A DNA stretch of 64,000 nt from Shigella phage SP21535. The stretch lies in sequence record PQ615101, one strand, 5' to 3'. Both the position numbers and the translations under genes were made by a program. The notes under the pieces are model-generated. The model was not told where the DNA came from and searched no databases. It saw only the letters and a list, made by a program, of their open reading frames with translations. This document shows positions 12,460-62,055 of the stretch, one piece after another (positions within the stretch are counted from its first letter, which is position 1; every line of letters begins with the position of its first letter).

Positions 12460-12489
12460 GTTTACATCCCCGTTCTTCCATGGTACTAT
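12460..12489 (+). promoter_or_regulatory. T4-type early promoter within a PeSL-like cassette
   Basis: GTTTAC -35, 18-bp spacer, TACTAT -10; followed by the conserved leader caactatcaactgatac...ggagaataaaATG. Confidence 0.6.
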
Positions 12490-12523
12490 ACAACTATCAA
12501 CTGATACGGATTTGGAGAATAAA

Positions 12524-40675: not shown

Positions 40676-40705
40676 GTTTACATACCACAAGGACTGTGGT
40701 ACTAT
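40676..40705 (+). promoter_or_regulatory. T4-type early promoter in PeSL-like cassette
   Basis: GTTTAC, 18-bp spacer, TACTAT, then caactatcagctacggaggagtaaaaATG. Confidence 0.6.
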
Positions 40706-40732
40706 ACAACTATCAGCTACGGAGGAGTAAAA

Positions 40733-40996
40733 ATGAAATTTAAATTTTATTACGCTAAACATAAAATTACCGGTGAATTTATTGCATTTACGACTTCAAC
40801 TACAGGTGAAGGAGATATTTTTACTGCAGTATTTTTATCAAAATGGGAATCAGATCAACCTTACTTATCATCACGTGAAGATCTCCAACGATTAGTTAAT
40901 GGAGAATATAATGATTCATGGTCATATTTAGTCCATGATTGTGTTAAAAAGGCAATAAAACAAAAACACCTGGAAATCGTTGAGATTGAACTATGA
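40733..40996 (+). CDS. hypothetical protein
   Basis: 87-codon ORF. Confidence 0.45.
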   Translation: MKFKFYYAKHKITGEFIAFTTSTTGEGDIFTAVFLSKWESDQPYLSSREDLQRLVNGEYNDSWSYLVHDCVKKAIKQKHLEIVEIEL

Positions 40997-44248: not shown

Positions 44249-44266
44249 GGAGAGCCTCGGCTCTCC
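44249..44266 (+). other. RNA hairpin without U-tract
   Basis: GGAGAGC-CTCG-GCTCTCC, immediately upstream of PeSL-like leader for motA. Confidence 0.4.
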
Positions 44267-44327
44267 AAAGCATACTGTGGTACTATACAACTATCAACTA
44301 CTGATACAGAATTACGGAGATTAGAAA

Positions 44328-59381: not shown

Positions 59382-59697
59382 TATTCGTCCGGTCGATGAG
59401 ACCGGTCTTTCAGAAAAAGAACTTTCAATTAAGAAAGAAAAGGATGAAATTGCAAAGCTTCTTGACCGCCAAGAAAATGGATTTATTATTGAAAAAATGG
59501 TAGAAGAGTTTGGAATGAGTTATCTTGAAGCTACAACAGCATTCTTAGAAGAAAATTCTATTCCTGAAACTCAATTTGCTAAATTTATTCCTTCGGGTAT
59601 AATTGAAAAAATTCAGTCAGAAGCTATCGACGAAAATCTTTTACGTCCTTCTGTTGTTCGTTGTGAAAAAACTAATACATTAGATTTTCTACTATGA
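59359..59697 (+). CDS. 33: late transcription co-activator gp33
   Basis: MTQFSLNDIRPVDETGLSEKELS... 112 aa. Confidence 0.85.
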   Translation: MTQFSLNDIRPVDETGLSEKELSIKKEKDEIAKLLDRQENGFIIEKMVEEFGMSYLEATTAFLEENSIPETQFAKFIPSGIIEKIQSEAIDENLLRPSVVRCEKTNTLDFLL

Positions 59698-60347
59698 TTA
59701 AACTCCGCATGCCTGCTGGTGGTGAAAGATACATTGATGGTAAATCAGTTTATAAATTATACTTAATGATAAAACAACATATGAATGGAAAGTATGATGT
59801 AATTAAGTATAATTGGTGCATGCGGGTGTCTGATGCCGCTTATCAAAAGCGAAGGGATAAGTATTTTTTCCAGAAGTTATCAGAAAAATATAAATTAAAG
59901 GAACTTGCTTTAATCTTTATAAGTAATTTGGTTGCTAACCAAGATGCTTGGATTGGTGACATCTCTGACGCTGATGCACTTGTGTTTTATCGTGAATATA
60001 TCGGACGCTTAAAGCAAATTAAATTTAAGTTTGAAGAAGATATTCGCAACATTTATTATTTTAGTAAAAAAGTTGAAGTTTCTGCTTTTAAAGAAATCTT
60101 TGAATATAATCCAAAGGTTCAGTCAAGTTATATTTTTAAACTACTTCAATCGAATATAATTTCGTTTGAGACGTTTATCTTGCTTGATTCGTTTTTAAAT
60201 ATAATTGATAAACATGATGAACAGACTGATAATTTAGTCTGGAATAATTATTCTATAAAGTTAAAGGCTTATAGAAAAATTTTAAATATTGATTCACAGA
60301 AAGCTAAAAATGTTTTCATTGAAACTGTGAAATCTTGTAAGTATTAA
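59694..60347 (+). CDS. 59: helicase loader gp59
   Basis: 217 aa immediately upstream of gene 32. Confidence 0.85.
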   Translation: MIKLRMPAGGERYIDGKSVYKLYLMIKQHMNGKYDVIKYNWCMRVSDAAYQKRRDKYFFQKLSEKYKLKELALIFISNLVANQDAWIGDISDADALVFYREYIGRLKQIKFKFEEDIRNIYYFSKKVEVSAFKEIFEYNPKVQSSYIFKLLQSNIISFETFILLDSFLNIIDKHDEQTDNLVWNNYSIKLKAYRKILNIDSQKAKNVFIETVKSCKY

Positions 60348-60355
60348 TTGCTTAT

Positions 60356-60363
60356 TATAAATA
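60356..60363 (+). promoter_or_regulatory. candidate late promoter upstream of gene 32
   Basis: Exact TATAAATA about 85 nt upstream of gene 32 ATG. Confidence 0.45.
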
Positions 60364-60380
60364 GATTATAATTATCTCAC

Positions 60381-60446
60381 TGACCAGCTATGAGGTCATA
60401 CATCGTCATAGCACCAACTGTTAATTAAATTAAAAAGGAAATAAAA
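60381..60446 (+). promoter_or_regulatory. gene 32 translational operator (pseudoknot plus A/U-rich tract)
   Basis: Interleaved pairings TGACC/GGTCA and GCTATGA/TCATAGC, followed by UUAAUUAAAUUAAAAAGGAAAUAAAA up to the ATG. Confidence 0.6.
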
Positions 60447-61382
60447 ATGTTTAAACGTAAATCTACTGCTGAACTCGCTGCACAAATGGCTAAACTGGCT
60501 GGAAATAAAGGTGGTTTTTCTTCTGAAGATAAAGGCGAGTGGAAACTGAAACTCGATAATGCGGGTAACGGTCAAGCAGTAATTCGTTTTCTTCCGTCTA
60601 AAAATGATGAACAAGCACCATTTGCACTTCTTGTAAATCACGGTTTCAAGAAAAATGGTAAATGGTATATCGAAACATGCTCATCTACCTACGGTGATTA
60701 CGATTCTTGTCCAGTATGTCAGTACATCAGTAAAAATGATTTGTATAATACTGACAATAAAGAGTACGGTCTTGTTAAACGTAAAACTTCTTACTGGGCT
60801 AACATTCTTGTTGTAAAAGACCCAGCTGCTCCAGAAAATGAAGGTAAAGTATTTAAATACCGCTTCGGTAAGAAAATCTGGGATAAAATCAATGCAATGA
60901 TTGCAGTTGATGTTGAAATGGGTGAAACTCCGGTTGATGTAACTTGTCCGTGGGAAGGTGCTAACTTTGTACTGAAAGTTAAACAAGTTTCTGGTTTTAG
61001 TAACTACGACGAATCTAAATTCCTGAATCAATCTGCGATTCCAAACATTGATGATGAATCTTTCCAGAAAGAACTGTTCGAACAAATGGTTGACCTTTCT
61101 GAAATGACTTCTAAAGATAAATTCAAATCGTTTGAAGAATTGAGCACTAAGTTCAGTCAAGTTATGGGAACTGCTGCTATGGGCGGTGCCGCAGCAACTG
61201 CCGCTAAGAAAGCTGATAAAGTTGCTGATGATTTGGATGCATTCAATGTTGATGACTTCAAAACAAAAACTGAAGATGATTTTATGAGCTCAAGCTCTGG
61301 CAGTTCATCTAGTGCTGATGACACGGACCTCTCTGTTCTTCTATGGTACTATACAACTATCGGCAATACTGCTGATGATTAA
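60447..61382 (+). CDS. 32: single-stranded DNA-binding protein gp32 (variant C-terminus)
   Basis: [24 protein letters not shown]...; zinc-binding Cys/His cluster; Ser-rich SSSSGSSSS tract; last 16 aa encoded by PeSL-like sequence. Confidence 0.9.
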
Positions 61383-61395
61383 AGAGGAAAATAAT

Positions 61396-61623
61396 ATGGC
61401 TAAAGTTGATATTGACATCGTTGATTTTGAATATATTGAAGAAATTATTCGTAATCGTTATCCTGAACTTAGTATCGCAAGCGTACAAGATTCTAAGTTT
61501 TGGAGTATTCAAATCGTTATTGAAGGTCCTCTTGAAGACCTCACCCGCTTTATGGCTAATGAATATTGCGATGGCATGGATGCTGAAGACGCAGAATTTT
61601 ATATGGGACTGATTGAACAATAA
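61396..61623 (+). CDS. hypothetical acidic protein
   Basis: 75 aa; RBS AAGAGGAAA. Confidence 0.5.
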
Positions 61624-61668
61624 TTATCAAGGGGCTATTACAGTCCCGTTAAAATGAGGAAAATCAAA

Positions 61669-62055
61669 ATGGAAATCGGCAAAAAATATGAGTTAAATCC
61701 ACACCGTATTAAATCTTTCATTGATATTAGTTCATCAAATGCTAATATGGTCAGCATCATTCAAGAAAATGGCGGTTGGTTTGAAGTTAAATCAATATCA
61801 AGTTTAGATGGCTTTGATTATGTAACCGAAATCATTTGTGCTAATGGCGAAATCTATAATGATGATGGCATAGGTGATGATTATTTTGAACTTAGTGAAG
61901 AAGAGTTTTATTGTTTCCGCGAGTATAAAGAACCGACTTCTGAAGAAGATGAAGTCGAAGACAAGGTTTCTGGCGTAACAAAAATTCACTGCATTGTAGA
62001 CGAAAACAATGTAGATGAAATCATTGAACTTTTGCGAAAAACTTTTAAGGCCTAA
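61669..62055 (+). CDS. hypothetical acidic protein
   Basis: 128 aa; RBS GAGGAAAA; alternative upstream ATG 61654. Confidence 0.5.
   Translation: MEIGKKYELNPHRIKSFIDISSSNANMVSIIQENGGWFEVKSISSLDGFDYVTEIICANGEIYNDDGIGDDYFELSEEEFYCFREYKEPTSEEDEVEDKVSGVTKIHCIVDENNVDEIIELLRKTFKA

Follow-up and report, generated by a model that had tools for sequence, protein, structure and literature searches.

A probable natural deletion at the boundary between gene 32 and frd.3 in Shigella phage SP21535, and recurring deletion endpoints in related phages

Introduction

The gp32 protein of phage T4 is the archetype of the proteins (SSBs) that bind single-stranded DNA (ssDNA), with an acidic C-terminal domain that coordinates replisome and recombination machinery of T4. 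In a 64,000-nucleotide (nt) stretch of Shigella phage SP21535 (record PQ615101; this whole stretch is referred to as the window), the 3′ end of gene 32 is encoded by DNA that resembles an early promoter and its leader. How did gene 32 come by this end, was DNA gained or lost at this site, and do other phages carry the same change? A first, sequence-only reading had proposed that a promoter-leader cassette related to the PeSL elements of T4-like phages rewrote the end of the gene. Our analysis indicates that the feature is very probably a natural deletion allele of the junction between gene 32 and frd.3 in Tequatrovirus, situated at a hot spot with recurring endpoints.

Gene 32 of the window lacks a segment present in its relatives

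The gene 32 product was identified by its match to Pfam PF08804 (E = 5.3e-66, residues 40-240), with the OB-fold ssDNA-binding core domain present, and by a protein search in which it was 98% identical to Tequatrovirus gp32. The features of the junction are:

60447-61382, + strand: open reading frame of the gene 32 variant (311 amino acids); N-terminal domain, OB/Zn core and Dda-docking helix intact, C-terminal tip replaced
61332-61379, + strand: sixteen new codons (residues 296-311), formerly non-coding DNA that is now translated
61325-61335, + strand: deletion junction GGACC/(T)CTCTG; breakpoint at 61329-61331, with T61330 assignable to either side
61324-61329, + strand: CGGACC at the former -35 (TTTACA) position, 17 nt upstream of the -10 element; 3/6 match to TTGACA
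61330-61352, + strand: remnant of the frd.3 early promoter inside the gene 32 reading frame, with 17-nt spacer, TGn (61344-46) and -10 TACTAT (61347-52)
61380-61398, + strand: new gene 32 stop TAA (61380-82) to the frd.3 ATG (61396-98); the TAA overlaps the Shine-Dalgarno sequence AAGAGG (61382-87)
61396-61623, + strand: frd.3 (75 amino acids, PF05798), directly after gene 32 without a terminator in between

A 601-bp query covering this region (61100-61700) matched 514 phage records, all of them Tequatrovirus, and each of the matches listed fell into two pieces spanning ~705 bp. Alignments of the window with phages OES_C-2, T6, T4, EC121 and EP01 contain a single clean gap. EC121 has 108 nt that the window lacks, with 100% identity on either side of the gap; compared with OES_C-2, the loss amounts to 104 nt, because the A/T runs within the segment vary in length. 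The gene 32 side of the junction reads ...GAT GAC ACG GAC C and is joined to the first spacer base of the frd.3 early promoter, with a microhomology of 1 nt (T61330) relative to EC121. The missing DNA, TGGATGACCTTTTGAATGACCTTTAA, encodes the last seven codons (DDLLNDL) and the stop codon of gene 32 and continues through the 3′ untranslated region, the hairpin with its T-run (GGGGACCCTAGAGGTCCCC-T6) and an A/T tract to the -35 element GTTTACA.

A consensus scan of full-length OES_C-2 identified an intrinsic terminator, and also a promoter of the form TTTACA-17-TACTAT that has a TG upstream. At the matching place in the window, the same scan detected neither of them, and between 59500 and 64000 the + strand had no terminator-like site. 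The frd.3 promoter is located ~145 bp downstream of gene 32 in T4 and T6, as in roughly 480 further Tequatrovirus genomes. In the window, a deletion of 104-108 bp took away all the DNA from gene 32 codon 295 up to the frd.3 promoter spacer, and the gene 32 frame now runs through the spacer, the TGn/-10 element and the leader to the TAA that overlaps the frd.3 ribosome-binding site. The new codons contain the TGG, the -10 hexamer and the frd.3 leader. The earlier observation that the last 16 gene 32 codons lie on promoter/leader DNA is therefore borne out, this DNA being the part of the frd.3 early promoter that extends from the spacer through TGn/-10 to the leader. The T4 gp32 end given in that reading, DDTDLDDLLNDL, agrees with T4, T6 and their relatives.

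The idea of a mobile PeSL cassette that inserted into or recombined with the gene 32 3′ end, thereby overwriting it, draws on two facts: the DNA encoding the new tail is of the PeSL promoter type and has further copies in the genome, and PeSLs are documented recombination sites in T4-like phages (PMC2839356, PMC4122927). Yet the promoter and leader are colinear with, and 100% identical to, the region upstream of frd.3 in the relatives, with nothing extra, and the leader is the frd.3-specific one (…CGGCAATACTGC…) rather than that of the other copies. The colinear alignments thus reject an insertion, and we consider this explanation very improbable. What stands of the proposal that recombination altered the gp32 tail is a DNA rearrangement that left a non-canonical C-terminus encoded by PeSL-type DNA; its direction was the reverse, since the promoter is the resident one of frd.3 and 104-108 nt were lost.

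Taken together, these results describe a viable deletion allele in a gene that is very well known, and no novel type of element. It goes beyond the ordinary in being a homology-free deletion that recurs at identical nucleotides across Tequatrovirus isolates, as described next.

The same endpoints occur in other Tequatrovirus isolates

For the search for parallel alleles, we used a chimeric 50-nt blastn query that combined 25 nt of gene 32 ending in GGACC with 25 nt from TGGTACTAT; the E-value cut-off passes only records in which both halves lie within ~20 nt. Ten records were recovered from the phage collection. The left flank matched in 496 records and the deleted segment in 482, a difference of at most 14, and the ten records together with Yersinia phage ZN18 explain 12 of these at most 14 left-flank-only records. 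The deletion alleles are of low frequency (~2% of roughly 480 genomes), a count of tip-less alleles that covers deletions. Nine other isolates carry deletions starting at ACGGACC^ (the caret marks the breakpoint), a left end common to all ten phages. Three types were distinguished:

D15 (window, TB004, Sfk20, 11B_SA_NWU, EO1): ACGGACC followed directly by the base that comes next to GTTTACA^ in full-length alleles, leaving 15 nt before GGTACTAT
D14 (GEP001, vB_Eco-B1.1, CrRp10, phiC600P9): 1 nt shorter, which places gene 32 in the frd.3 frame; 392-amino-acid gp32-Frd.3 fusion
ZN18 (Yersinia phage ZN18): 70-nt deletion with the same left end and the right end just past the terminator T-run; tail FQKIFS*

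The gp32 proteins of D15 type have 311 or 310 amino acids and end in xxxx[LP]WYYTTIGN[TI]AD[DN]*. Sfk20, TB004, EO1 and 11B_SA_NWU thus share both breakpoints, the reading frame and the ...WYYTTIGN(T/I)AD(D/N)* tail with the window, while GEP001, vB_Eco-B1.1, CrRp10, phiC600P9 and ZN18 share the left breakpoint. In contrast, the spacer haplotype of the window, TCTCTGTTCTTCTAT, and hence its junction sequence, is found in none of them. Had the resemblance between tail and promoter been a coincidence, the same tail might have turned up without the motif in its DNA; TB004, Sfk20, 11B_SA_NWU and EO1 all carry the promoter together with the deletion.

The hosts of the isolates were E. coli, Shigella, Citrobacter and Yersinia. 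Their records name China, France, India, Malaysia, Poland and South Africa as places of origin, with the country missing from three. In the open-access literature, we found no paper describing these alleles or the deletions of these phages. The 392-amino-acid 'SSB' of phiC600P9 (L005 2501-3679) comprises the gp32 and Phage_FRD3 domains in a protein search. This and the other D14 fusions (also in locus stretches L010, L012 and L015) retain the internal frd.3 Shine-Dalgarno sequence and ATG and are annotated simply as SSB. The ZN18 deletion, which was seen only in ZN18 (two records of the same phage; locus stretch L002 1700-1800), removes the tip and the terminator and keeps the -35 element, and its gp32 ends in ...DDTDLFQKIFS*.

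These parallels bear on the possibility of an assembly or sequencing artefact, in which the junction of the source genome would be full-length and low coverage or a wrong join around the GC-rich hairpin, with A/T runs on both sides, would have produced the gap. The exact junction was seen in the window only, and the deleted segment does contain a strong hairpin and homopolymer runs. But the long open reading frames are intact across the rest of the window, the breakpoints share no repeat able to mislead an assembler, and nine isolates that share the left end, including four that share both ends, are hard to obtain from independent artefacts. The parallel alleles come from independent laboratories and make an assembly error in the window unlikely.

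D15 alleles probably arose several times

The five D15 alleles differ in their spacers, which read TCTCTGTTCTTCTAT in the window, ACCAAAGCATACTGT in TB004, TACAACAAGGACTGT in Sfk20, TCCCTGTTCTTCCAT in 11B_SA_NWU and TCCTTGTCCTTCCAT in EO1. Four of the five are identical to spacers of full-length alleles, namely those of EC121/OES_C-2, EP01, pSs-1 and an IMG/VR contig; the fifth, from 11B_SA_NWU, is 1 nt away from the closest full-length allele seen, which lies on another IMG/VR contig. For comparison, a D15-type junction as read in T4 (ACGGACC followed by T4's own spacer) would be ACGGACCAGCATAAAGC. Flanking single-nucleotide polymorphisms also differ among the D15 alleles, and no shared 'deletion haplotype' was evident. 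Recombination cannot bring a new spacer to the junction, because deleted and full-length alleles lack homology immediately to its left. By a conservative count, the haplotypes suggest at least three independent D15 events, in addition to ZN18 and to D14, which either arose separately or derives from the TB004 type by a change of 1 nt.

The native tip of gp32 and its replacement

We next consider what the lost segment encodes. In an alignment of 74 cluster representatives (59-95% identity), the last nine gp32 columns read D-L-D-D-L-L-[NA]-[GD]-L. This LDxLLxxL tip is nearly invariant: one Leu is present in 74/74 sequences, and the remaining hydrophobic positions take only similar (aliphatic or aromatic) residues. 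The ~30 columns preceding it are variable and gap-rich, and the extreme tip is the best-conserved part of the acidic C-terminal domain. AlphaFold2 predicts a short helix for native residues 294-301, with a predicted local distance difference test score (pLDDT) of ~60, following a linker below 50. Judged by its conservation, the tip D-L-D-[DE]-[LI]-L-x-x-L-COOH looks like a short linear interaction motif. No solved structure contains the tip bound to a partner. He et al. (PMC11551737) showed that Dda docks on gp32 helix 248-270 and described residues 273-301 as an acidic region that is invisible in their structure and may regulate ssDNA binding.

In the window protein, the conserved tip LD[DE][LI]Lxx[LMF]-COOH is absent, and 16 other residues stand in its place. 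Helix 248-270, which corresponds to the Dda-binding segment of T4, is unchanged. The replacement tail is modeled by AlphaFold2 with pLDDT values of 32-47, compared with 80-95 for the core. The variant presumably still binds ssDNA cooperatively and has its docking helix (248-270), and its new tail appears to be a low-confidence segment unrelated to the native tip and rich in aromatic residues.

Two comparisons help to place this variant. Like T4 gp32 and its proteolytic form gp32-A, which lacks residues 255-301, it belongs to the same family, with the N-terminal cooperativity domain, the OB/Zn core and the 248-270 helix, and like gp32-A it has no native C-terminal end. Unlike gp32-A, it loses 7 rather than 47 residues, keeps the acidic Ser/Asp linker, gains 16 promoter-encoded residues and is a natural genomic allele instead of a protease product. 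The second comparison is with the E. coli SSB (tail DDDIPF) and T7 gp2.5 (terminal Phe232), which, like gp32, have an acidic, disordered tail ending in a short conserved hydrophobic motif that docks partners. The gp32 tip differs from both in having no defined partner or bound structure, and the analogy is no more than a lead.

Predicted consequences for frd.3 and the downstream operon

The remnant of the frd.3 promoter retains a -10 element with a 4/6 match; promoter classes were assigned after PMC2988021. The consensus scan called no promoter at this place. Judging from these elements, frd.3 may keep at most a weak extended -10 promoter, now inside gene 32 codons 295-302, with a predicted start site near 61359. 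With the terminator gone, gene 32 transcripts should no longer stop at the junction and should extend into frd.3, frd.2, frd.1, frd and td. In addition, 13 nt separate the new gene 32 stop from the frd.3 ATG, and the position of the TAA over the frd.3 Shine-Dalgarno sequence is an arrangement that favors translational coupling of frd.3 to gene 32. RNA folding of the new 3′ region paired the spacer with the Shine-Dalgarno sequence, but with a z-score of -0.6, and was not relied on.

Early-promoter copies and comparison with PeSLs

The sequence-only reading had also stated that the motif precedes many early open reading frames. It does recur before early genes, but the exact motif has only three other copies. 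The 21-mer CTATGGTACTATACAACTATC occurs at four sites in the window with at most one mismatch (12478, 40694, 44275 and 61341), while none is expected (100 shuffles), and each of the three other copies lies 20-35 nt upstream of a Shine-Dalgarno sequence and an ATG:

12478-12498, + strand: paralogous early-promoter copy downstream of gene 43; A/T tract and -35 kept
40694-40714, + strand: paralogous early-promoter copy preceding the open reading frame at 40733; -35 kept
44275-44295, + strand: motA promoter copy; stem-loop abuts the spacer, without a -35

At the motA promoter (44256-44295), a 7-bp GC-rich stem-loop, GGAGAGC-CTCG-GCTCTCC, lies directly against the spacer, an architecture that resembles the product of the gene 32 deletion at frd.3. 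The frd.3 promoter spacer varies from phage to phage, and its haplotypes (compared in locus stretches L009, L016 and L017) match the spacers at 12463-12477, 40679-40693 and 44260-44274 with 0-1 mismatch. This mirroring of paralogous promoters suggests frequent ectopic gene conversion or exchange among early promoters, bounded by the conserved -35 on one side and the -10/leader on the other.

The PeSL cassettes described previously (Arbiol 2010; Comeau 2014) resemble the locus in that the gene 32-frd.3 region of the relatives is a textbook PeSL (TTTACW-N17-TAYWAT), and the rearrangement in the window sits at such an element. Of its components, the window has the TGn and -10 (TAYWAT; TGG-TACTAT at 61344-52), the Shine-Dalgarno sequence (AAGAGG, 61382-87) and the start codon (ATG, 61396). 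The terminator stem-loop, which the relatives have as GGGGACCCTAGAGGTCCCC followed by a T-run, is missing, and the A/T-rich tract and the -35 (TTTACW) are both deleted. The published events differ from this one: they involve two PeSLs, and exchange or excision between these adds or removes open reading frames that are non-essential. In the window, one PeSL is half deleted, the endpoint lies inside an essential core gene, and PeSL-PeSL homology plays no part. A crossover within the homology of two PeSLs is not what the junction displays, as the left breakpoint falls in unique gene 32 sequence.

Endpoint precision and candidate mechanisms

The overlap at the junction is 0-2 nt across the alleles (1 nt, T, in the window; none in TB004). 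The right end lies where the conserved A/T tract and -35 give way to the variable spacer. No deletion begins at the second or third in-phase GACC^T repeat of the tip codons.

Several mechanisms were examined and rejected. Microhomology-mediated or slipped-strand deletion would leave its mark in the choice of repeats, and CTG, CAC and many equal or better repeats nearby were not used. For palindrome or cruciform excision, the TG...CA termini of the segment pair at 9/14 positions by eye, but folding leaves the termini unpaired on both strands. A homology boundary with a paralogous copy does not fit the left end, as paralogy starts only in the A/T tract. A cut at a fixed distance from the terminator is contradicted by a right end that stays at GTTTACA^ though the A/T-run lengths vary among haplotypes. 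The homing endonuclease SegG, whose cleavage site we take to lie in the 5′ third of gene 32, was dismissed as well: the window has no segG, and in T4 the gene is located upstream of gene 32.

Two coincidences of position were noted at the left breakpoint. It falls on CC^TGG, a CCWGG site, which is probably fortuitous and leaves the right end unaccounted for. In full-length alleles, a small DNA or RNA hairpin, TCATCTAG-N16-CTGGATGA, can also form at the end of gene 32 (locus stretches L001 1706-1737 and L009 320-351; left arm at 61305-61312 in the window). The 3′ arm of TCATCTAG...CTGGATGA begins one base before the left breakpoint, again probably by coincidence and without accounting for the right end.

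It is conceivable that exchange intermediates stalled at the homology boundary are the source of the breaks. A broader alternative is a site-specific process, by a nuclease, by a topoisomerase or recombinase, or by resolution of an intermediate at the -35/spacer boundary. Its products may have been positively selected, either for shedding a tip sensed by host defence or for placing the frd operon under gene 32 control. Nucleotide-identical endpoints in at least three unrelated spacer haplotypes, and a left end that is the same in ten phages, point in this direction, as do the two other in-phase GACC^T repeats that were never used, the unused equal or better microhomologies at breakpoints without homology, and a right end set by the sequence GTTTACA^, not by distance. 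The authors who described PeSLs themselves raised a targeted recombinase. As for selection, AbpAB and DARNA are activated by phage SSBs, T4 gp32 included, and a gene 32 missense mutant evades AbpAB, so that defence evasion is a possible selective reason for the loss of the tip. Against this alternative, no enzyme, recognition motif or excised product was identified, and the allele is rare, at the ~2% given above. Moreover, selection alone cannot give single-nucleotide precision, because in-frame alternatives could keep the native -35 and an equivalent tail, and a mechanism alone would be pure inference. We consider a site-specific origin possible, if doubtful.

A more specific proposal can be formulated along these lines, which we offer as speculation and think rather unlikely: the ~104-bp module of tip codons, terminator, A/T tract and -35 could be excised by a nucleotide-precise, sequence-directed process (ACGGACC^...GTTTACA^) as a recurrent genetic switch, with tip-less and fusion alleles being selected and not tolerated accidents. 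In a single step, such a switch would rid the essential SSB of a conserved motif that serves protein interaction or is sensed by defences, and would link gene 32 to the frd operon in transcription and, in the D14 form, in translation. The joint of the putative excised ~104-nt circle would read GTTTACA followed directly by TGGATGACC.

Discussion

The reading of the locus as a natural deletion allele at a recurrent hot spot has to be weighed against several observations. The exact junction of the window was seen in no other database entry: it is absent from the phage collection, IMG/VR, JGI metagenomes and GTDB genomes, and the exact protein is absent from the assembly index. Gapped junction patterns had no matches in IMG/VR, JGI metagenomes or GTDB genomes either; IMG/VR holds only 3 canonical copies of the locus, and negatives outside the phage collection carry little weight. 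A search with the last 57 gp32 residues gave no candidates in a word-index search that limits such a query. As to recurrence, three of the D15 spacers are similar and could interconvert by heteroduplex patch repair, which would reduce five events to three.

The precision of the hot spot is accounted for by none of the tested mechanisms. The breakpoint regions have no direct or inverted similarity (local alignment score 13, with 12.3 as the mean after shuffling), folding of the deleted segment predicts the 7-bp terminator stem alone and no pairing of the ends, and the part comprising tip and terminator has no paralogue in the window. A function of the tip is undocumented in the literature consulted, in which PMC11551737 places Dda binding at 248-270, outside the tip. 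Finally, loss of an interaction, read-through, residual promoter activity and coupling are all deduced from the nucleotide sequence.

Ten natural phages without the gp32 tip, four of them with an extra protein fused, are ready material to test the role of the tip, and they also suit a test of the pressure that SSB-sensing defences exert on phage SSB tails. Annotators label products of 310-392 amino acids 'SSB' without comment. A recurrent homology-free deletion suggests that site-specific rearrangement at T4 early promoters has a source so far unrecognised, and it bears on the origin of PeSL-associated genome plasticity.

Other features of the window

The window represents a Tequatrovirus whose nearest relatives are ~95.7% identical over 24 kb (50,697 phage records). 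On the + strand, gene 59 (59694-60347; Pfam T4_Gp59_N and T4_Gp59_C) is followed by gene 32, frd.3, frd.2, frd.1, frd and td, as in T4 apart from segG, which T4 carries between genes 59 and 32. The gap between these two genes is only 99 bp in the window (60348-60446), without the homing-endonuclease gene found there in T4.

A second variation concerns the zinc site of gp32, whose ligands are presumably Cys77-X3-His81-X5-Cys87-X2-Cys90 (T4 numbering). The three Cys are present in the window protein, and the position of His81 is occupied by Tyr (TAC 60690-60692). His is found at this position in 73/74 gp32 representatives and Phe in one Providencia phage. The 73-nt stretch containing the TAC codon occurs in identical form in 24 phage records. 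Tyr81 is therefore a natural polymorphism in circulation, at a position presumed to be a metal ligand.

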